Virus record (IMG/VR): IMGVR_UViG_2690316131_000018
Direction: 5' to 3' (one strand)
Origin: a virus
Lineage: Duplodnaviria > Heunggongvirae > Uroviricota > Caudoviricetes
Length of the DNA stretch: 29,394 bases
The translations under genes and the position numbers were made by a program. This document shows, piece after piece, positions 8,195 to 22,257 of the stretch. Below the pieces are notes generated by a model that was not told where the DNA came from, did no database searches, and worked only from the letters and a program-made list of their open reading frames with translations. How positions within the stretch are numbered: position 1 is the stretch's first letter; each line of letters starts with the position of its first letter.

Positions 8195-8520
8195 TCACCT
8201 CCGTTACCGTACAGAGTTTCAGCCGCTGATTTTTCTACATCCCCGGAAACAGGAGCGATCGCCATATCAGTGATCTGCAGATCGGCGCTGCGATTAACGC
8301 CATCGTTAGTTTCTCTGGCAGACAGGCCTCGAATAACAGCCTTTGCAGTTATCATCACTTCCGTTCCGACGCCCTTAGGTTGCGCCTTCAGCTTATTCAA
8401 TGTGTCGTTATTAAGAGTGATGCACAGCCCCCACGGGTATTCATCGCGAGTTCTGGTTTCTCCGCTCTCATCCTGGTAGCTGTCAGTGCCGGTTTTGAGG
8501 TTTACGAGTTCCATATACAC
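8191..8520 (-). CDS. hypothetical structural-module protein
   Basis: ORF in the operon; likely true start is the ATG at ~8514, preceded by GGAG. Confidence 0.45.
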   Translation of the reverse strand: MYMELVNLKTGTDSYQDESGETRTRDEYPWGLCITLNNDTLNKLKAQPKGVGTEVMITAKAVIRGLSARETNDGVNRSADLQITDMAIAPVSGDVEKSAAETLYGNGGE

Positions 8521-13720: not shown

Positions 13721-13797
13721 GTGGCATTAGCTCAGTCGGACAGAGCAACCGCCTTCTAAGCGGTTGGTCGCAGGTTCGAATCCTGCATGCCACGCCA
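13721..13797 (+). tRNA. tRNA-Arg (anticodon UCU), phage-encoded
   Basis: 77-nt cloverleaf folded by hand: acceptor stem GTGGCAT/ATGCCAC, D-stem GCTC/GAGC, anticodon stem ACCGC/GCGGT with loop CTTCTAA, T-arm GCAGG-TTCGAAT-CCTGC, discriminator G and encoded CCA. D- and T-arms resemble host argU; acceptor and anticodon stems differ. Confidence 0.85.
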
Positions 13798-14019: not shown

Positions 14020-14838
14020 ATGAAAAAATTCAAGGTAATTAGCATGTTTGAATCGTTCAAAGAGCTGTTTTTATCTACTGCCAATACTGCCGTGAATCGA
14101 GCCAAAAACCCTGTGCTTGGTGCTTTTGTTATGTCCTGGTGCGCCTTCAACTGGAAATCAATTCTTTATCTATTTTTTAGCAAATCAAACATAATAGATA
14201 AAATTTCATATATCTCAGATAACAGCACATGGAAAACTGTTATGTTTTATCCATGCTTATCTGTAATTGCTATCTGCTGCCTATTACCATGGGTAAACAA
14301 TATCATTAACGTATGGCAAGCAAAGCCTCTTGATAATAATGACTCAATCGAAAATCACCTGAAGGCAAGAAAAATCCAGCGTGAAACAAGACTGCAGAGG
14401 TTATTGGCTAAAAAAGATGTTACATACGACAAAGTTAAGACTGGCGCGGAAAAAGACATCCAAGAGATGAAAGAAGAGATTATTCGATCAAAGAATAGTA
14501 TGGGGGAATTGACTGCCGAGTTGAAAGCTAAAGATGACGAATTGAGATCCGCCAGTGCTCAGTTAGCAGCTCTAAATCATTCATTAAAAGAGATATCGGA
14601 AACTCTTGGAAGAATGAATGAGGCATATAAGACCCTCCAAAATGATTTCGACGAATACAAACTCAAATACCCTGAAAAATCTCAAATAAAAAGCCTTGCA
14701 CTTGGCAACGGCCAAACAATTAGCAACTTTTTGGAGCAACACAACTTATCCGGATTAAAATCTGGTAAGCCAAACGTTTTTAATAACTTTGGTGTTCTAT
14801 CTGGATTATCAGGTTTCGAGGATAAAAATAAAGACTAA
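14020..14838 (+). CDS. AT-rich cargo gene: predicted membrane protein with long C-terminal coiled coil, unknown function
   Basis: The track ORF starts at 13948, but the probable start is the ATG at ~14020 (MKKFKVISMF), just after a TATAAT. Two hydrophobic segments near the N-terminus, then a charged heptad-like region. AT-rich versus the rest of the window. Convergent with the terminase gene, stops overlapping. Confidence 0.6.
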   Translation: MKKFKVISMFESFKELFLSTANTAVNRAKNPVLGAFVMSWCAFNWKSILYLFFSKSNIIDKISYISDNSTWKTVMFYPCLSVIAICCLLPWVNNIINVWQAKPLDNNDSIENHLKARKIQRETRLQRLLAKKDVTYDKVKTGAEKDIQEMKEEIIRSKNSMGELTAELKAKDDELRSASAQLAALNHSLKEISETLGRMNEAYKTLQNDFDEYKLKYPEKSQIKSLALGNGQTISNFLEQHNLSGLKSGKPNVFNNFGVLSGLSGFEDKNKD

Positions 14839-16310
14839 GCATATGGATCGTACTCGGTAAGCGCCTTGCCTTGCTGGTTCTGCTGCCCGGGAAGTCGCAG
14901 GCGCTTTGACACCGGGAAAGCAAACGTCAGCAGTAGCGCATCGCCTTTACCAGGAGAACGCCCAAGACGCTCTTTGATATCTTCCTTCGGTTCGATAACG
15001 ATTTTACCGTCCACACGAACTTTGTACTCTGCCGCCGACAGGTCGTCTGCAGTTTCCTGGTCATCCAGCATGCCGCCCAGCCTCAGCCATGTCTTACATG
15101 AGTTGAACATCTCCCCACGCTTGTTAAGCATCTGCGGGTCAGTGGACGCACCGCCGAACGGAACAAGTTGCCATGTACGCCCCCAGCCATCACCGATTGA
15201 CTTCAAACCGGTTCCGTAACCGAAGTCGATGAACACCGCGTCAGCCTGATACTGGTCTTCAAAGTCAGCGATACGCTTCGCCATAATCAGATCGTCAGTG
15301 GTCTTGTTGCCAGTCCACAGCACCTTACTGTGCAGCCCCTGCCGCAGGTATATCGCAGCGTCATCAACACCGGAGTATGCCGGGTCAACGCCGATTATCA
15401 CCGGAGCATGTACCACCTGCGCAGCGGTTACCACCCGTTTCATTGCCTCATCAGTAAGACCGGTAGGGATAAACTGCAATTCAGATGCATCAGGGAATAT
15501 GCCGCGCACACGGATTTTAACGAAGTCGCTGTCTTCCCCGTAGTCATCAACCCATTTCTGCAACTGCTATTTGTTAGTGCCTTCCACCGTCCGGCTGTCA
15601 ATCTGCGCAGTTTTCCAGCGGTGTTTGTATTTGCGGAAACATTCGCGAAAACGCCCGGTGTTACGTGTAGGGTTTCCGAACGCCACCCAGATAATCTCAG
15701 TGTCTTCGTCCGTAAGAGCACCCTCAGCAACTTCCCACACCAGATCCGCAATGTTCGACGCTTCATCAAATACCACGATGATGCGTTTGCGCTCGTTGTG
15801 TAGTCCGGCGAATGCCTCAGTGTTGTGCTCAGACCAGGGTATTGCGTCAGCCCGCCACCGCTTGTCGTGCCCAGGGTCATTGCTGTACATCGCGGTAGCG
15901 GTACAGGTAAACCAGTCTTTCGTGATGGCAAGGTTCGACCACTTGATAATTTCCGGCCAGGTCTTCGTTCGTAGCTGGTTGTCGGTGTTGGCGGTCACCA
16001 CGACCTTACAATCCTCGCAAGTGGACATGCCCCAGTTGATCAGCATTGAGATGAATGCGGATTTACCAATACCGTGACCAGAAGCGCGTGCCAGCATAAG
16101 CGGCTGATAGCGCGTCTCTGGATTCTGCAGGTGATCACGTATCTCTCGGAACGCATCGGCCTGCCACTGACGTGGACCGGTAGCATGTGCCAGTTCAGTC
16201 CCCTCTTCCCCCCAAGGGAACGCATAGAGGGCATAGCCAAGCGGATCGTGAGTGAACCCTGCAATATCTTCGATTAACTGCTCTTCAGGAGATAACGCTG
16301 CATCTGTCAC
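14835..16310 (-). pseudogene. terminase large subunit interrupted by an in-frame TAG
   Basis: ORF 15567..16310 has Walker A (GHGIGKS) and Walker B (IIVVFDEAS) motifs; ORF 14835..15563 has a nuclease-like Asp-rich region. Both are in one frame, separated only by TAG at 15567-15569 plus one sense codon. The second ORF starts at TTG, not ATG. Confidence 0.7.
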
Positions 16311-17017
16311 TGATTACCATCCTGACGTTCTTTGAGTCGCTTCCTGGCTGCTGCTATGCGATCAGCAATTGTCACATTCACATTAACATCCAGGCGTTCT
16401 TTGAATGCGTTGACGTCGACGTGCTTACCGATGAGCTCGAGGTTTTTCACCTTGTCGGGCCATTTCACCTTCTTCAGGATATGCTCGACATCCTCAACAG
16501 AGAGATCCGCCTCGCCATTCTCTTTTTGCAGGGAAGCCTGGGTTGTCTTGATGGTAGCGATATCCATAGCACTGAGAGAGGTACGCCAGACCTTCGGCCA
16601 TTCAGTGATCGGCTTCATCCCGCCGTCATCGTTCAGTATATCCAGCACGTCCATCTGGTCTATTTCCACCAGGCGCATGAGAACGTAATCAGCACTGACG
16701 CGCATTCGTTTGTTGCGCTCCTCCATCAACTCGGCAATCCGTTTTTGAATGCGTTCATCGCGCATCATGACACTGGCTTTAACTGCCGCTGTATTTGGAG
16801 AGAATCCTGCGTTAATCGCTGCCTGAGTCTGGTTTTCAGGCGTTTTGATGTATGACTGGCAATAAGCCTCCTGCATTGCTGTTAGTGGCTTAAATTGCGT
16901 TGATTTGCGTTTATAGGTTTTAGGTTCAGCAGGCATCATAACCACCCTGGTAATTGTTACCGTCGTGGTAATAGTAACATGCAAAATAAAGCCGCCATAG
17001 TTGGCGGCAGTATTCAA
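16307..17017 (-). CDS. terminase small subunit
   Basis: Motif AYCQSYIKTPENQTQAAINAGFS is typical of phage small terminases. Probable start is the ATG at ~16939 (MMPAEPK); the longer track N-terminus would run through a terminator and operator. Confidence 0.65.
   Translation of the reverse strand: MNTAANYGGFILHVTITTTVTITRVVMMPAEPKTYKRKSTQFKPLTAMQEAYCQSYIKTPENQTQAAINAGFSPNTAAVKASVMMRDERIQKRIAELMEERNKRMRVSADYVLMRLVEIDQMDVLDILNDDGGMKPITEWPKVWRTSLSAMDIATIKTTQASLQKENGEADLSVEDVEHILKKVKWPDKVKNLELIGKHVDVNAFKERLDVNVNVTIADRIAAARKRLKERQDGNQ
16957..16971. promoter_or_regulatory. operator-like palindrome TTACCGTCGTGGTAA just upstream of the terminase genes
   Basis: Perfect TTACC-N5-GGTAA between the terminator (16981-17008) and the small terminase start (~16939). 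Confidence 0.45.
16981..17008 (-). terminator. rho-independent terminator between the nin-like block and the terminase genes
   Basis: GCCGCC-N6-GGCGGC hairpin followed on the - strand by TTTATTTTG. Confidence 0.5.
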
Positions 17018-17057
17018 AACCCATCAAATTCATCATGCATAATCTACTCGTGACATG

Positions 17058-17405
17058 TCACACTATTAATTTCGTTTCATGCCAGCCTTTAGTCACCCAG
17101 CATTGCGAGTCACCATTACACGGGCATGAATTAACTGGAACTCTCTCGCCGCACTTACCGCAACGTTTTCTGCTGATCGATTTTATACGCCCGCGCACAC
17201 GTGCATCATCCTGGCGGATCAGCAGCGCGATGTACTCGGCCATTTCATAGGGATCGCGACCAGGGCGCCGGGCGGCGCAGTTCCGCGCTAGCATTTCCTG
17301 CTCCTGCTTATCCAGCACCAGTTCAATTTTGCGCTCACCGGCGGCGGACTGCCGAGCGCGCTGCGCGGCTTTGCGTTCTGCGGGGGATTTAGCCACGAAT
17401 CGCAC
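17058..17405 (-). CDS. hypothetical basic protein with Cys-rich C-terminus (possible DNA-binding regulator)
   Basis: 115-aa ORF with GTG start. Arg/Lys-rich N-terminus and a CGKCG...CPCNGDSQC cluster. Last gene before the terminase terminator. Confidence 0.4.
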   Translation of the reverse strand: MRFVAKSPAERKAAQRARQSAAGERKIELVLDKQEQEMLARNCAARRPGRDPYEMAEYIALLIRQDDARVRGRIKSISRKRCGKCGERVPVNSCPCNGDSQCWVTKGWHETKLIV

Positions 17406-17511
17406 TCCACGCCAGATTGATTAATGACTCCCAGGTAATATAAACCCGGATACCAGCAGCCAGGCCGAAACCAATCACCATGGCATAAAGCAGAGCGTTG
17501 CACTTGTTCAT
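17389..17511 (-). CDS. possible small hydrophobic protein (~40 aa)
   Basis: ATG at ~17511 overlaps the stop of the DUF551 gene (ATGA). MNKCNALLYAMVIGFGLAAGIRVYITW is a single hydrophobic segment. Not independently supported. Confidence 0.25.
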   Translation of the reverse strand: MNKCNALLYAMVIGFGLAAGIRVYITWESLINLAWSAIRG

Positions 17512-18410
17512 CACTTCACCTCCTGCGGCGGTTCTGGTAGAGGCATCCAGTGTGATGGTATCCACGACGCACCAGGTATTACCCACCCATCATTAGCGTC
17601 AGGATGCCCCGGGATGTAAGTCGCCCATTTCATTCGCCAGTCACCTTTCCTGTCAAACTCCCTGGCAACAAGAACGGCTGTTTTGGTATCCGGCATTCGC
17701 TCACTACAGCTTATCCAACCATCCGGAGTTGCCGGAGAGTTGCCCGATAGTGCATTCTGCTCCAGTGATGCTTTTACAAACCACGCTGCCTGAACTATAA
17801 CGCCATGAATCCAGCGCAAATCAGCATCGCGATCTTTCTTTTTCATCTTTTCGCCACTTAAGGCCTTGCTTATGTGGCTGCGTACCAGGTCTTCATGTAA
17901 TTCCTTCGCCTCCTCAATGGTGAAACCACCAGGCAGAAGAGCCGGAGTTACCGGAGAGCTGGTTGACGCTTCCGGGATTTCCCGAAAATTATTGGTTGAC
18001 GAATTCTTGCTTTCCCGAAAGTTTCCGGACTGAAGCATGGCGGTGCGGCAGGCGTTCCATATTTCGGCAGCAATATCGCGCTCGCTATCGGTTAATTTGT
18101 ACGTGGAAACATAGCCAGAGAGCATTTCTACGTTTTCCGGAGTTGCTTCTTCCGGCACTACCGGCGCTGGCGGGGCGATGCGTCCAAGCAACTTATTTAC
18201 CTCTTTCGCCATCGCGTCATATTTATCTAAATGGCGATTAGCTTCTAAGCAGACTCGGCGCATCTGATCTGAGTTAACTCGTTTAACTGGATCTGCTTCC
18301 AGCGATGCCAGCGCAATCCGTGCCAGTTCCATTTGTTCACCACGGGTAAGCCCGTTTTCAAGCGGATTTTTAATGAACAATTCAATACGTTCTTTGGTAA
18401 TAGTGGTCAT
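17511..18410 (-). CDS. DUF551-domain phage protein
   Basis: 299-aa ORF. The C-terminus (...WISCSERMPDT...HWMPLPEPP) matches the DUF551 signature common in prophage nin regions. Confidence 0.55.
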   Translation of the reverse strand: MTTITKERIELFIKNPLENGLTRGEQMELARIALASLEADPVKRVNSDQMRRVCLEANRHLDKYDAMAKEVNKLLGRIAPPAPVVPEEATPENVEMLSGYVSTYKLTDSERDIAAEIWNACRTAMLQSGNFRESKNSSTNNFREIPEASTSSPVTPALLPGGFTIEEAKELHEDLVRSHISKALSGEKMKKKDRDADLRWIHGVIVQAAWFVKASLEQNALSGNSPATPDGWISCSERMPDTKTAVLVAREFDRKGDWRMKWATYIPGHPDANDGWVIPGASWIPSHWMPLPEPPQEVK

Positions 18411-18649
18411 GTGTTAATCCTCAAAACTTTATGCCCGGGCGCAAAAGTACGTGTTTTGTCTTTGCTTATTCGCCAGCCATCCTTGCGCGCCTCTTTTGCA
18501 CAGCCAGCCCATGACGTACCTATATACTCACCGAAGTCTGGCACTGGATATACACCTTCCGTGCACTGACGGCAGTCACAATAGAGATGCATGGTGTAAC
18601 TTGCAGCGATAGCCATATCACTCTCCTTTGATGCGAATGCCTGTTGCAA
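18407..18649 (-). CDS. small Cys-rich hypothetical protein
   Basis: Probable start is the internal ATG at ~18616 (MAIAASYTMHLYCDCRQC), which avoids overlap with the upstream gene. Confidence 0.4.
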   Translation of the reverse strand: MQQAFASKESDMAIAASYTMHLYCDCRQCTEGVYPVPDFGEYIGTSWAGCAKEARKDGWRISKDKTRTFAPGHKVLRINT

Positions 18650-19061
18650 TGCTGTTTATGATGCTGTCAGTGCATGGGGTAGAAAGCTGGGCATCTCCAG
18701 CAATTTTCATGACCTCAACATCTGCATATCGAATACCGAGGTGTATCAGACCGGCTATGCCTGACTTAAGCCGAGCATTTTCCATAAATAGAACTTTTGC
18801 CCGCTGTTTTTCTGCTTCAAGCTCAACGCGCAGCTTCCCTACCGTTAGCGCAATATCCTCGTTCTCCTGATCGCGGCTTTTGATGTATTTCTGGTTTCTT
18901 TCCCGTTCATCCAGAAGCGCCAGCACAATGTGTGGCGTTATCAGGGACTCAAATTCGGCAACAGCTTGCTCGCCTCGCTTGTAATTCTTAATCCCACCTA
19001 AATCTTTCGCGTTCTGCGCCGCCTCACGCAGTACCTGATAGTCAATTGTCATTCTCGCCAT
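18618..19061 (-). CDS. Ead/Ea22-like coiled-coil protein
   Basis: 147-aa ORF with a coiled-coil core containing ENARLKS, also present in the ORF at 19690..20136. Confidence 0.5.
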   Translation of the reverse strand: MARMTIDYQVLREAAQNAKDLGGIKNYKRGEQAVAEFESLITPHIVLALLDERERNQKYIKSRDQENEDIALTVGKLRVELEAEKQRAKVLFMENARLKSGIAGLIHLGIRYADVEVMKIAGDAQLSTPCTDSIINSIATGIRIKGE

Positions 19062-19693
19062 CCTTCACAGTTGTAATCACTACAGCCTTCAAAATCATAT
19101 GGGCTGTACTGCCAGGTGATTTTTCCGCAATGCGGACAATTCCAGCGCACCTTCCCGCTTCGTGACTTCTTTCTTCTGTTTTGCTTTTTCAACCAGTCAG
19201 GCATGATCAAACCTGCGCCCTGAACCATTGTTCTGCGGTTAAAATTATTGATATTGAACGTCCGCCGCTTTGCTGCATCGGCAATGGAAAATGGCAACCA
19301 AACTATTCCTGGTTCGTTTTTGTTGGCGACGCTAAAGATGGTCGCTTTACTGAAGTCATCTGTTGGCAATCCACCGTGTTGAAGCCAGTAAACATCGTTG
19401 CCGTTCCAGCTACCTTTTTTGTAGGCCACATACGCAGTGCAATCTGACTCAATCAGGCTTTCTGTAGGGATGTACTGGCAATCAACGTGCCACACAGCCA
19501 TTGCATCCACGCTATCAGCGCAAACAGGCTGATCGATATCTCGTCCACAATTCCAGGCTTTTTGGGCTTCTTCCAGCGTGTAAATATGAGCGCGATCGAT
19601 ATCAGAACTGTAACCATTGCCGTTATGGCAATGGAATGAGGCGTTATTACCCACAGTTTCACGCAAGCACATCATGTAAAAACGGTTACTCAC
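19049..19693 (-). CDS. hypothetical Cys-rich protein with C-terminal zinc-ribbon-like motif
   Basis: 214-aa ORF ending CPHCGKITWQ...CSDYNCEGW. Confidence 0.45.
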   Translation of the reverse strand: MSNRFYMMCLRETVGNNASFHCHNGNGYSSDIDRAHIYTLEEAQKAWNCGRDIDQPVCADSVDAMAVWHVDCQYIPTESLIESDCTAYVAYKKGSWNGNDVYWLQHGGLPTDDFSKATIFSVANKNEPGIVWLPFSIADAAKRRTFNINNFNRRTMVQGAGLIMPDWLKKQNRRKKSRSGKVRWNCPHCGKITWQYSPYDFEGCSDYNCEGWRE

Positions 19694-20136
19694 TGGTTGC
19701 CTCCTTTGCGAAGCTCAGCGGCGAAGGCTACTGCGTGATCATGATGTTCAAGTGTGTATGCACACTTGAACATCTCCACGCCCTGCGCCCGTACTTCAGC
19801 TAGGAAAGCATCGGTGGCTGGGGTGTCAACACGGATACTGTCGCGCAAGATGAAAAATGCATTGAGCATCCCAGTCTCCGGCACTTCATCCTGATACTTC
19901 TCATACGCATCAAGAGCCTTCATCATCTCAGGTCCGAATGGTTGAGGGTGCGCAGATTTCAGTCTCGCATTCTCCGCCGCCAGCGCATTAGCACGCACCA
20001 GTTGCACTTCCAGTTGCGTTGCCAAATCGCTGATCAGCTTTGCCACACTGCGCATATCAACGGCACCACATTCTGCTTTCAGTTCCGAAGCCATCTCATG
20101 CCCGGCGGCAACTAACCCTTTGATATTACTTTCCAT
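19690..20136 (-). CDS. Ead/Ea22-like protein (paralog of 18618..19061)
   Basis: 148-aa ORF sharing the ENARLKS coiled-coil motif. Confidence 0.5.
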   Translation of the reverse strand: MESNIKGLVAAGHEMASELKAECGAVDMRSVAKLISDLATQLEVQLVRANALAAENARLKSAHPQPFGPEMMKALDAYEKYQDEVPETGMLNAFFILRDSIRVDTPATDAFLAEVRAQGVEMFKCAYTLEHHDHAVAFAAELRKGGNQ

Positions 20137-20197
20137 CTTTACCCTCGCTTATCCACATAACTTATTGATTACATTGATAACTAAAAAGATCGTCGAT

Positions 20198-20542
20198 TCA
20201 GAACTCTTCGATGTTCCAGCCACCACCTGCTTTCTTTGGTTTAACCGTTACCCCGATGATTCGGAACGGATACTGATCTGCGGCGACTTTGGTTTTCACC
20301 CTGGCGTCGTCGGTCCAGAAACCTTTCACTTCGTGCAGTTCCATCTCTCCGGTGGCGAGCATCACAGCGAAATCGGGCGTATAGAACGTGTTATCAGCTA
20401 ACCGCAGCTTGATACCCTCAAATCGATACCAGACGATTTCTCCTGCACGTTTACGCAGCTCAAGGTGCTGGCAATACGCAGATTCTGTTTTGTTCATCTG
20501 ACCTGTTTTGAGTCGACCAAGAGCCTGTATCTGTTTTCTCAT
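20198..20542 (-). CDS. DUF1064-like phage protein, putative PD-(D/E)xK nuclease
   Basis: 114-aa ORF with ATG start. The YTPDF...E.HEVKG pattern fits a restriction-endonuclease-like fold. Confidence 0.5.
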   Translation of the reverse strand: MRKQIQALGRLKTGQMNKTESAYCQHLELRKRAGEIVWYRFEGIKLRLADNTFYTPDFAVMLATGEMELHEVKGFWTDDARVKTKVAADQYPFRIIGVTVKPKKAGGGWNIEEF

Positions 20543-20545
20543 GAT

Positions 20546-20622
20546 TTACCTCTGAGGTAATTAAAAACCACATAAGACACGAAATCAATAGATTTTAGAA
20601 TATTTTATTACCTAACAGGTAA
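20546..20622 (-). promoter_or_regulatory. repressible promoter for the nin-like block, flanked by two operator palindromes
   Basis: On the - strand: operator TTACCTGTTAGGTAA (20608-20622), then -35 TTGATT (20583-20588), 17-nt spacer, -10 TTTAAT (20560-20565), then operator TTACCTCAGAGGTAA (20546-20560) abutting the -10 and containing the ribosome-binding site for the ATG at 20542. Confidence 0.5.
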
Positions 20623-20659
20623 TTGTCGAGGCGTAAAAAAATGCGCTATCGCGCTGGTA

Positions 20660-21460
20660 TTACTTGATAAATCCTGCCGCCTTTCCTCGCCTGTATTCCT
20701 CCATCAGCCACTGCGCCGGTGTTATTCCACCAAGGGTGGCGGCGTTAGGCATGCACCCGAAACTTCGCCCTGGTGGATGGTAAACGTCTCTCCCTGTGTC
20801 CGGAGGTGTACTCATGGGTTCTGGCTTTGCCTGTATGCTGATCACCGGATCGGGTATCTGCTGTCCGGAAGCCACCTTTTTCGCCCAATCATCGAGCAGC
20901 TTGCGCGCGTGTTTCTCAACCTCAATCTCGCTAAGCTGGCGCTGATACATTGCACGGCGGGTATCACATACGACCCAGTACATAACCGGATGTCGCCACG
21001 GGAATCTTTCGGGACCACCAGGATATAAACTTTTTTCCTTGCTGTACCGGTTAAACTCCGCCATCACATCGTCAATGGTGACGCCAAGAACCATCTTGCT
21101 GTCTTTACACCACTTGATGAATTGCCCAGGCGACGGCCAGAACGGAGATTCACTGGCGCGGGCGTGGCGCATACCAGCAGAAACCTGTTCACGGGTTCGG
21201 ATCCCCCCTTCGGCAAACGCAGCAATCCACTGCTGTTTTGCAGCAACTTCCTGCTCTGGCGTCTTCAGGTTGGTTACCACTGCCGCCGGAAACAGTTGTT
21301 TCAGCTGTTTGAAAAGGGCATCAACAAGCCTCTCTGCTGACATGTTCACCACGTTATCATTGTTGGTGTACTGATGCTCATAACCTGACATGCGAGAAAG
21401 GGCTTCTCCGTCACGGTTTTGTATCGCGGTAAAAACGTTGTTCACAAGAAATCCTCCCAT
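20660..21460 (-). CDS. lambda P-like replication protein (helicase loader)
   Basis: Central region closely resembles lambda P from memory (WIAAFAEGGIRTREQVSAGMRHARASESPFWPSPGQFIKWC; LYPGGPERFPWRHPVMYWVV). Probable start is GTG at ~21445, preceded by GGAGGA and overlapping the O-like stop. Confidence 0.75.
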   Translation of the reverse strand: MGGFLVNNVFTAIQNRDGEALSRMSGYEHQYTNNDNVVNMSAERLVDALFKQLKQLFPAAVVTNLKTPEQEVAAKQQWIAAFAEGGIRTREQVSAGMRHARASESPFWPSPGQFIKWCKDSKMVLGVTIDDVMAEFNRYSKEKSLYPGGPERFPWRHPVMYWVVCDTRRAMYQRQLSEIEVEKHARKLLDDWAKKVASGQQIPDPVISIQAKPEPMSTPPDTGRDVYHPPGRSFGCMPNAATLGGITPAQWLMEEYRRGKAAGFIK

Positions 21461-22257
21461 GCTTCAGGGCTGTTCCTGTGCGGAACGTTGTTATCAGGTA
21501 ATGTTGATTGCTTCTGTCTGCTAATCTGCAGCCTCCTTGCCAGCTTCTGCTCCCACTGTGCCTGATGGTATGCCTTACCCTCAGCCATCCAGTAAATTCT
21601 GAACTCTGCAAGTTCCTGTGCCGTTGGCAGACTGTCCAGGTAGATCCCCTGCAATGAGCTTTTCCGAAGAAAGTCATCTGATGGCTGCCATTGTTCATGC
21701 ATGACAAATTTGCCTAATTGCCCTGGCCCACCAGGAGGAACAAAGTTATTCATCACGGCGTTGTTTGCGCCGGGGTCATGAGGCACAGAATCCCCGCTTT
21801 TTGTCCTGCTCTCCCTCTCTTGGTTAAATGACTGGTTATATGACTGGTTCTGGATCCCGTTTTTGGGATCATTCAACATCCCGTTTTTGGGATCATTCAA
21901 CATCCCGTTTTTGGGTATATTCCCGTTTTCGGTAACATTACCGTTTTCGGGTTCATTGCCCCCCTCCAGGTTGCCTTTAATGTTCCCGTTTTTGGTTATA
22001 TTAAGAGAGAAAACCCGCACTCTTTTTGTCGCTCCCTTTCTCTCTCCGGTATCTGAAATAAGCCCCATTTTCATGAGCGATATAAGCCCGGCCTGCACGG
22101 TTTTTTTATTCAGGCAAGTGTCTTTAACGAGGCGTTCTATGCTGGGGTAGCAGAGGTTATATTCATCGGCTCTGTCAGCCATCGAGAGCAGTATGAGCTT
22201 TAATGATGAGCTACCTGGATCTGTCTCCCAGGCCCAATCTGTTGCATGTCTGCTCAT
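21442..22257 (-). CDS. lambda O-like replication initiator
   Basis: 271-aa ORF with an N-terminal HTH-like region, internal repeats (NGMLNDPKNG) encoded by iterons, and position directly upstream of the P-like gene. ATG at 22257 with GGAG ribosome-binding site. Confidence 0.7.
   Translation of the reverse strand: MSRHATDWAWETDPGSSSLKLILLSMADRADEYNLCYPSIERLVKDTCLNKKTVQAGLISLMKMGLISDTGERKGATKRVRVFSLNITKNGNIKGNLEGGNEPENGNVTENGNIPKNGMLNDPKNGMLNDPKNGIQNQSYNQSFNQERESRTKSGDSVPHDPGANNAVMNNFVPPGGPGQLGKFVMHEQWQPSDDFLRKSSLQGIYLDSLPTAQELAEFRIYWMAEGKAYHQAQWEQKLARRLQISRQKQSTLPDNNVPHRNSPEAWEDFL
21854..22002. repeat. origin-type iterons inside the O-like gene
   Basis: Two tandem 24-bp copies of ATCCCGTTTTTGGGATCATTCAAC followed by degenerate copies. 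Each has an internal inverted repeat (ATCCC...GGGAT) and resembles lambda ori iterons. Confidence 0.65.

Follow-up and report, generated by a model that had tools for sequence, protein, structure and literature searches.

A mosaic accessory gene block with EaE/Oad2-type, zinc-ribbon and Ea22-type genes in a phiV10/epsilon15-like prophage

Genes and features of the locus

The DNA analyzed here, referred to as the window, is a stretch of 29,394 nucleotides from a virus of the Caudoviricetes (IMG/VR record IMGVR_UViG_2690316131_000018). Judged by its DNA matches and gene content, it is a phiV10/epsilon15-like (Uetakevirus) prophage. The closest DNA matches of positions 17000-21500 are found in the Uetakevirus phages phiv142-3, phiV10 and EC.W1-9 and in similar E. 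coli prophages, and the other genes of the window include an integrase, YqaJ/RecT recombination genes, the replication genes O (DnaT-like) and P, TerS, TerL and portal. Our subject is a trio of consecutive genes whose products we name P3, P2 and P1; the bacteriophages P1 and P2 are always marked as phages below. All three open reading frames (ORFs) listed in a preliminary description of this DNA are indeed present on the minus strand, and their coordinates are collected in Table 1 along with those of the remaining features.

We read the trio as a segment of a non-essential, early-expressed accessory ("ea-type") gene block of this prophage. As read from the sequence, its members are three unrelated or barely related genes, arranged head-to-tail and translationally coupled: P3 and P2 overlap in GTGA, P2 and P1 overlap in ATGA, and each upstream gene contains a Shine-Dalgarno sequence within its final codons. 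The probable start of P1 is ATG 19052 (144 amino acids, aa; MTIDYQ...), which forms the ATGA overlap with the P2 stop codon. We regard the trio region as ordinary phage mosaicism: its genes are new representatives of families already described, and mosaic regions of this kind are known as well. Searches of the region for RNA families and direct repeats gave no hits.

Table 1. Features of the trio and its surroundings in the window.
Feature	Position	Strand	Remarks
Replication gene P	20660-21460	-	
Promoter-like site TCGACA-16-TAAAAT	20602..20629	-	10/12 consensus match; P-DUF1064 intergenic region
DUF1064 gene (NinX-like, Holliday-junction-resolvase-like)	20198..20542	-	Pfam PF06356 E=2.9e-7; phrog_190 E=7e-43
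P3	19690-20136	-	148 aa
ENARLKS codons of P3	19954..19974	-	read from sequence
TPATDAFLAEVRA motif of EaE-type proteins	19786..19824	-	short DNA island kept in otherwise dissimilar relatives
Perfect 14-bp inverted repeat, 4-nt loop	19743..19774	.	inside P3 coding sequence; imperfect in relatives
EaE 3' junction CTTCGCAAAGGAGGCAACCAGTGA	19690..19713	-	encodes ...LRKGGNQ*; Shine-Dalgarno AAAGGAGG; next GTG in GTGA overlap
P2	19049-19693	-	214 aa, GTG start
P2 repeat 1	19457..19690	-	residues 2-79
P2 repeat 2	19229..19441	-	residues ~85-155
P2 basic helix/linker KKQNRRKKSRSGKVRWN	19139..19198	-	residues ~166-185
P2 zinc ribbon C186-x2-C189-x14-C204-x4-C209	19067..19138	-	conserved in family
P1	18618-19061	-	147 aa as longest ORF
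ENARLKS codons of P1	18762..18782	-	within C-terminal module absent from lambda Ea22
Ea22 3' junction ATTCGCATCAAAGGAGAGTGA	18618..18641	-	encodes ...IRIKGE*; Shine-Dalgarno for next gene (ATG 18616)
phrog_926 gene	18407..18616	-	69 aa; E=5e-36 over residues 12-79 of listed 80-aa ORF
DUF551-domain protein	17511..18410	-	299 aa; Pfam PF04448 E=3.3e-20
phrog_536 regulator gene	17058-17405	-	TerS next downstream
Terminator-like hairpin	16991..17008	-	after phrog_536 regulator gene

The outer genes belong to two different families

The preliminary description regarded the outer genes as two paralogous Ead/Ea22-like genes, i.e., as a duplicated and diverged pair. This view did not hold, since only P1 passes the Pfam Ead/Ea22 model. 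The family PF13935 (gathering threshold 27 bits) matches residues 5-116 of P1 with 76.7 bits (E=3.4e-21), and all 120 listed P1 homologues carry the same domain. Residues 6-87 align with residues 4-78 of lambda Ea22 at 60% identity over 84 aa (BLASTP E=1e-26), where the alignment ends except for the terminal GIRIKGE, which is identical in both proteins. While lambda Ea22 continues into a C-terminal domain with a nuclear magnetic resonance structure, P1 has a 55-aa tail with ENARLKS instead. PDB sequences gave no match to P1 at E<=10, which indicates that the lambda C-terminal domain is absent. P1 is hence classified as a true Ea22 homologue without this domain.

Besides the N-terminal segment, the first half of the coiled coil and the terminal GIRIKGE, P1 has early-operon expression and a mosaic architecture with swappable ends in common with lambda Ea22 and P22 EaD of the PF13935 family (PMC10834534). 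The genes differ in location, as lambda ea22 lies between exo and xis, whereas the P1 gene follows the replication genes of a podovirus-type prophage. Lambda Ea22 is a tetrameric, pro-lysogenic, coiled-coil protein (PMC10834534); tetramer formation and the pro-lysogenic phenotype are known only for the Ea22 proteins of lambda and Stx phages (PMC10834534, PMC7093339). By analogy, P1 would be a coiled-coil oligomer that biases development to lysogeny as lambda Ea22 does, with a different C-terminal effector module.

Within the P1 family, a hypervariable cassette is enclosed by the invariant stretches IDYQALREAAEKA and VLALLDERERN. We do not claim that the C-terminal module of P1 is a shortened EaE module: a hidden Markov model (HMM) of ten diverse EaE-type proteins matches residues 88-137 weakly and colinearly (ENARLKS with AENAGLK, TPCTD with TPATD), but its score of 5.5 bits is no better than that of shuffled sequences, 500 shuffles reaching 8.5 bits. 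As a side observation, the Ea22-like gene of phage phiv142-3 (positions 2404-2451 of the related locus L004; related loci are numbered in this way) opens with an (ATCGAC)n run encoding IDIDIDIDIDID, by which the conserved N-terminal "ID" of IDYQ has been expanded as a hexanucleotide repeat.

P3 lies outside the lambda Ea22/P22 EaD family and is assigned to the EaE/Oad2 type, not to Ead/Ea22 by Pfam. No Pfam family matches it at E<=0.1, no similarity to lambda Ea22 is found (BLASTP E=0.35), and among its more than 6000 homologues all 120 listed are without a Pfam domain. It is related to phrog_492 (E=3e-47) and, end-to-end, to EaE of the P22-like phage SE1 (BLASTP, P3 residues 2-148 on EaE 26-151, E=3e-29, 49% identity), the last 45 aa being almost identical; gp27/Oad2 of phage HK446 follows at 30% identity (residues 14-148 on 8-175, E=4e-13). 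P3 reveals the motif frame of these proteins, AENAxLK - TPATDAFLAEVRA - LRKGGNQ-stop, including the embedded Shine-Dalgarno sequence and the overlapping start of the next gene, and the P3 family alignment shows no variation at E55, N56, A57, L59 and K60. In P22 EaE and Oad2 the common frame reads ...AAENAxLK..., ...TPATDAFLAEVRAQ..., ...LRKGGNQ-stop, and the 3' junction DNA is the same as in P3. Differences concern the N-terminal module (MESNIKGLVAAGHE... in P3, typical of phiV10-like phages), the variable cassettes and the location: in HK446 and SE1 the EaE/Oad2 gene lies downstream of DUF2737 in the CIII-side recombination locus, while P3 follows DUF1064 after the replication gene P. The hypervariable cassette of the P3 family is located between AEVRAQGVEM and FAAQLRKGGNQ.

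The TPATDAFLAEVRA motif is also present in Oad2, in SE1 EaE and in the EaE-type proteins of Klebsiella. At the DNA level it forms short blastn islands (19775/19786/19794-19821/19831) with 88-91% identity in L001, L002, L004 and L005; in L003 it is spanned by a longer match of 87% identity (19690-19827). An AlphaFold2 model of P3 is all-alpha with a long helix at residues 28-62. Its mean confidence (predicted local distance difference test, pLDDT) of 64 was too low for a fold search. The designation of both outer proteins as coiled-coil proteins thus stands for the Ea22 family, where it agrees with the literature, while for P3 it is suggested by this low-confidence all-helical model.

Two local rearrangements were observed in P3. 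First, the inverted repeat within its coding sequence is imperfect in SE1 EaE and L003, which read GATGTTTGCGGAGTGTG...CACACTTGAACATC, i.e., an imperfect palindrome GATGTT-TGCGG-AGTGTG, while the window reads GATGTTCAAGTGTG...CACACTTGAACATC with GATGTT-CA-AGTGTG. The left arm of the window is now the exact complement of the right arm, the protein is altered from FAEC to FKC, and the net loss is 3 nt. The change has the appearance of a template switch at a quasipalindrome; a few E. coli proteins, e.g., P0123, have this allele as well. Second, P3 is devoid of a 28-aa coiled-coil segment (EDHQRAIESIKQADSAVKLAHEKFSALA) present in several relatives (window 19979-19986 versus L001/L004/L006), where a copy of the short repeat "ALA" stands on either side of it. 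Forms with and without the segment are both common in the family, such that the helix seems to have gained or lost it in frame more than once.

The shared core ENARLKS of the outer proteins, which differ elsewhere, was described accurately: the heptapeptide is exact at residues 94-100 of P1 (18762-18782) and residues 55-61 of P3 (19954-19974). The pairwise alignment proposed in the preliminary description reveals significant similarity past the heptapeptide, yet it is confined to a single helical stretch of 31-32 aa with 44% identity (BLASTP E=8e-5). This similarity is above chance. The Smith-Waterman score of 61, compared to 29+/-5 for shuffled sequences, was reached by 1 of 2000 shuffles in each of two kinds of control, one global and one within 20-aa windows such that local composition was kept. 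Full-length homology was rejected, as hhalign aligned the two family profiles over 33 columns only, with a probability of 22.6%. At the DNA level, six of the seven ENARLKS codons differ (GAA AAT GCT CGG CTT AAG TCA in one gene, GAG AAT GCG AGA CTG AAA TCT in the other). Almost every synonymous position in the shared codons has changed; the motif has thus been kept as protein and not via a recent DNA duplication, and P1 and P3 are not recent duplicates.

It is accordingly very unlikely that a single Ead/Ea22-like gene was duplicated locally in tandem and that the copies then diverged and received P2 between them. Such a duplication would account for the exact heptapeptide inside a significantly similar stretch, for the similar size and helical nature of both proteins, and for their common matches to phrog_250, phrog_368 and phrog_492. 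These common matches, however, fall on different parts of chimeric profiles. Apart from the restriction of the similarity to about 31 aa, the low profile probability and the codon differences, each gene has closer relatives elsewhere (EaE for P3, lambda Ea22 for P1), and EaE-type and Ea22-type genes already adjoin as distinct families in P22-like phages. We consider the duplication largely refuted. Rather than a trace of it, the ENARLKS stretch would be a conserved piece of a helical oligomerization region common to both mosaic families.

The central gene encodes a conserved protein of PHROG 2457

Homology search and structure prediction, as suggested for the central ORF in the preliminary description, place P2 in PHROG 2457 and yield a confident model that matches no solved structure. 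The PHROG match comprises residues 1-214 on profile positions 1-220 of 222 (E=8.3e-119), while no family of Pfam or NCBIfam was hit. The P2 family consists of 137 close clusters and of 821 representatives at 50% identity (E<=1e-3). Its members occur in temperate phages and prophages of Enterobacterales, Vibrio, Acinetobacter, Pseudomonas and Burkholderia, and the best annotation among them is "putative zinc finger protein". Conservation across Gamma- and Betaproteobacterial phages is strong, with 50% identity between E. coli and Acinetobacter.

The AlphaFold2 model of P2 has a pLDDT of 91.9. Its N-terminal 160 residues are a tandem duplication of an alpha/beta unit of about 75 aa: hhalign of the two halves of an 85-sequence alignment gives a probability of 98.6% (E=5.8e-16, 75 columns). 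In repeat 2, G98 and N99 are retained by 98% of the 85 sequences, and N99 and D100 are invariant in an alignment of 28 sequences. A change of character follows from the acidic to the basic part, with an isoelectric point of 4.7 for residues 1-140 and of 12.0 for residues 141-185, which contain 14 K/R in 45 positions and, in the model, a helix at 166-178.

The zinc-ribbon-like tail that had been noted is real and conserved. Its four Cys reach frequencies of 0.99, 0.99, 0.99 and 0.85 in 85 diverged representatives, 80 of which show the complete four-Cys pattern, and the first Cys pair is flanked by strands 182-185 and 192-195 in the model. Two Cys pairs, each in a short beta-hairpin knuckle as expected of a C4 zinc ribbon, are supported by sequence and model. 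The wording "Cys-rich" applies only in part: the ribbon Cys are conserved, whereas the six N-terminal Cys are not (0.04-0.32).

A known fold was rejected for P2, as sequence and profile searches against the PDB gave only non-significant matches to zinc fingers and to the ribosomal zinc-ribbon protein eL43; the match of the family profile to the latter is weak (E=0.07). Foldseek reached a best E of 0.28 in the PDB, i.e., no solved structure was matched, and found only fragments of uncharacterized proteins in the viral BFVD. Domain fusions gave no clue to function either, since eight longer family members are without a Pfam domain. The gene name hkaG was rejected as well, because the hkaG coding sequence of IME10 is the downstream Ea22/DUF551-like gene. 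In length and C4 ribbon, P2 agrees with the known members of PHROG 2457, i.e., the "putative zinc finger protein" of Vibrio phages and the Upf genes of phage P7/P1-like phage-plasmids. To these annotations we add that P2 is internally duplicated in tandem, has a basic linker and is without relatives among solved structures. P2 is predicted to be an independent factor whose basic linker and zinc ribbon would most likely bind nucleic acid; its acidic double domain would bind a ligand or protein.

Conserved junctions and mosaic exchange

The CTTCGCAAAGGAGGCAACCAGTGA 24-mer is identical in five of nine tabulated Eae-type 3' ends (the window, L001, SE1 EaE, HK446 Oad2 and, from TTCGC on, phiV10), irrespective of the gene behind it, and variants of it are present in the other four. 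Positions 19686-19740 occur alone, with 98-100% identity, at the EaE|EaA junction of P22-like phages, where isolated junction matches are also found at EaD starts. The junction ATTCGCATCAAAGGAGAGTGA recurs in L001, L004, SE1 and lambda-type Ea22 proteins. In between, the 3' end of P2 supplies the Shine-Dalgarno sequence and the ATGA overlap for the Ea22-type gene. The likeness of the C-termini of P3 and P1 arises because the ribosome-binding site is read in frame, and the conserved C-terminal (LRKGGNQ, IRIKGE) and N-terminal (M-x-IDYQxLRE) peptides reflect, for the most part, conserved junction DNA.

Comparison with six related loci by blastn locates the mosaic breakpoints at the junctions and at the short TPATDAFLAEVRA island. 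This implies that homologous recombination there swaps genes and sub-gene modules among phiV10-like, P22-like/lambdoid and phage P1-like phages. Both the EaE and the Ea22 family are composed of invariant frames around hypervariable cassettes, and natural chimeras that join the N-terminal part of an Ea22-type protein to the C-terminal part of an EaE-type protein reach 47-64 bits with the EaE HMM.

The suspicion that the trio marks an exchangeable accessory cassette is borne out by these breakpoints and by the cassette content of related prophages. The slot between EaE- and Ea22-type genes holds P2 in the window and in two E. coli prophages and a gene of 74-77 aa in phiV10 and phiv142-3; in the P22-like SE1 it is empty. 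In HK446 (L017, ~8480-8512), right after the Oad2 stop codon and within a stretch annotated as intergenic before xis, GTGAGCAAGATTGACTATCAGGCACTGCGTGAG would encode VSKIDYQALRE, the start of an Ea22-type gene. This stretch is apparently a remnant of an EaE-Ea22 pair.

Assignment of the trio to a nin region is correct with respect to position, i.e., after the replication gene P plus a DUF1064/NinX-like gene and before TerS, but not with respect to content, because apart from the DUF1064/NinX-like gene none of NinB/E/G and Q was found in this stretch of the window. The block shares with the lambdoid nin region the replication-late gene position, the NinX-like gene, gene-by-gene mosaicism and conserved junctions. 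It differs in that the lambdoid region has Q and NinB/E/G, while the genes of the block have their homologues among the early-left "ea" genes of P22 and lambda. The modular theory reportedly goes back to Botstein and Susskind, and nin-region comparisons are said to be the work of Juhala, Hendrix and colleagues.

Distribution of P2 and of the trio

Among 5426 complete E. coli genomes, 374 reveal matches to the P2 gene, 248 of them with a place covering at least 80%, at more than 95% identity. About half of these places are located on plasmids. P2 is also present in phages P1/P7/SJ46, in Stx2c phages and in IME10, such that it is shared at more than 95% identity by phage P1-like plasmids, P22-like/lambdoid prophages and phiV10-like prophages. 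An Ead/Ea22-like gene directly follows P2 in 23 of 27 sampled full-length E. coli matches. The exact 1.8-kb combination of the window was found in one piece in none of the 5426 genomes.

The trio of EaE-type, P2 and Ea22-type genes occurs in Escherichia Uetakevirus-type prophages. Klebsiella lambdoid prophages contain the full trio with 4-nt overlaps as well, with 79% identity for P2 and about 30% between the EaE-type neighbor and P3; there it is combined with three different replication modules, just upstream of NinB/NinE/NinG. Recurrence of gene order and overlaps in Escherichia phiV10-like and Klebsiella lambdoid prophages despite strong divergence, adjacency of P2 and Ea22 in the E. coli sample and across four phage types, and the ribosome-binding site provided by P2 to the Ea22 gene would fit a single three-component system, e.g., with P2 as effector and the coiled-coil proteins as adaptors or regulators.

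We consider such a system unlikely and do not favor it, because P2 travels without the other two outside Enterobacteriaceae. Its homologues have unrelated neighbors in at least seven other genera, and an obligatory linkage of P2 and Ea22 was rejected, since the neighbors differ in Acinetobacter, Methyloprofundus, Yersinia, Pantoea, Atlantibacter and two metagenomic/other hosts. In these distant hosts the gene is surrounded by ASCH, DUF551-like and methyltransferase genes of prophage early regions, without EaE or Ea22, which indicates that P2 does not need EaE or Ea22. Furthermore, the upstream gene is not EaE-type in phage P1-like and P22-like contexts, P22-like phages have EaE and Ea22 adjoining without P2, other small genes occupy the slot in phiV10 and phiv142-3, and linkage at more than 95% DNA identity can be hitch-hiking.

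Operon context and other features of the prophage

The DUF1064 gene is the conserved left anchor of the variable region among phiV10-like phages, and positions 19979-21000 are 97-98% identical in four Uetakevirus-type loci. The promoter-like site upstream of it, preceded by a GCGC-GATA-GCGC-T7 hairpin, is a candidate start of the operon holding the trio, and the terminator-like hairpin is the likely end. At the equivalent place, the phiV10 annotation contains a rho-independent terminator. Both sites together suggest that the block from DUF1064 to the phrog_536 regulator gene is one operon.

Following P1, an 80-aa ORF had been listed (TTG 18649) that overlaps the end of P1. The real gene encodes 69 aa from ATG 18616, with GGAG 7 nt upstream, and its product is 100% identical to an annotated 69-aa protein in L001. 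This small, Cys-containing phrog_926 protein habitually follows Ea22-type genes in phiV10, phage P1-like plasmids and E. coli prophages.

The TerL gene (14835-16310, minus strand) shows 98% protein identity to phiV10 TerL (491 aa). An in-frame amber at codon 248 (15567-15569, minus strand; TAG where phiV10 has CAG) splits it into ORFs of 247 aa and 242 aa. A frameshift was rejected, as the break consists of this one codon, and the prophage could be defective or an amber mutant, or the codon a sequencing error. A tRNA-Arg(TCT) gene (13721-13797, plus strand; Rfam 73 bits, ARAGORN) is located between terminase and portal and runs opposite to the structural genes. There is a reported link between tRNAs of phages and resistance to defenses that cleave tRNA, e.g., OLD.

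A mosaic block with probably independent members

The trio is, in our judgment, probably best explained as a mosaic accessory block whose genes are swapped at the junctions, with P3 acting in counter-defense, P1 being pro-lysogenic and P2 autonomous, functional roles that we infer. The block would be a host-takeover and counter-defense toolkit. The role of P3 is modeled on gp27 (Oad2) of HK446, the one member of the family for which a preprint of July 2026 reports binding to the OLD nuclease tetramer of phage P2 and a block of its activation; Oad2 is related to P22 EaE and sometimes fused to EaD/Ea22 (bioRxiv 10.64898/2026.07.10.737580). By analogy, P3 would form helical oligomers that bind an immune protein of the host or of a prophage and block it, and its hypervariable C-terminal cassette would set the target.

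Several observations weigh against this explanation. An Oad2 homologue of 54% identity from phage HK75 fails to inhibit OLD, and a narrow allele specificity of the anti-OLD activity is stressed (bioRxiv 10.64898/2026.07.10.737580). Since P3 shares only 30% identity with Oad2 and the HK75 homologue is inactive, anti-OLD activity is not transferable to P3. The coiled coil of P3 is suggested by a model of low confidence. P2 homologues without EaE or Ea22 neighbors occur in Yersinia, Acinetobacter, Methyloprofundus, Pantoea, Atlantibacter and further hosts. The promoter-like and terminator-like sites were recognized by their match to a consensus, and such matches are no more frequent than in shuffles of the region. 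PADLOC gave no model match for any of the seven proteins of the block, its library comprising defense systems and not anti-defense; membership of the block in a defense system was rejected on this result.

A further reading would deny the arrangement any functional meaning and regard the genes as three independent "moron-like" passengers, some possibly decaying, joined by junction reshuffling. The extreme mosaicism, truncated and pseudogene Ea22-like copies in relatives, the absence of the 1.8-kb combination from the complete E. coli genomes, and the amber codon in the TerL gene, by which the element may be defective, are consistent with it. We find it rather unlikely, as the three ORFs are translationally coupled and none is disrupted, P2 is strongly conserved across Gamma- and Betaproteobacterial phages, ENARLKS and other motifs were kept as protein despite saturated synonymous change, and an activity has been demonstrated for one member of the EaE family. 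A quite unlikely, more specific proposal is that P2 is a counter-defense factor with a zinc ribbon and a new fold, and the trio a modular anti-immunity unit directed against OLD-family (ABC-ATPase/TOPRIM) or related nucleases. Here, P2 would bind nucleic acid or a defense trigger and, in enterobacterial phages, act jointly with the adjoining EaE/Oad2-type and Ea22-type coiled-coil proteins, whose hypervariable cassettes would determine the target.

The mosaic block bears on genes that are widespread. Few unannotated genes are as common in E. coli prophages and phage P1-like phage-plasmids as those of the Ea22, EaE and PHROG-2457 types, and P2 alone has matches in about 7% of the complete E. 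coli genomes. Annotations as "ead/Ea22-like" mix two families that recombine with each other, and the conserved protein termini are conserved ribosome-binding junctions; together, these two points explain the confusing mosaic annotations. P2, broadly conserved, confidently modeled and without a match among solved structures, is a clean candidate for structural and functional work. With Oad2 as a reported anti-defense member, the hypervariable cassettes can be read as arms-race interfaces. If it is true that P3-type alleles inhibit different OLD-family systems, these cassettes would represent a ready-made library of specific immune inhibitors.

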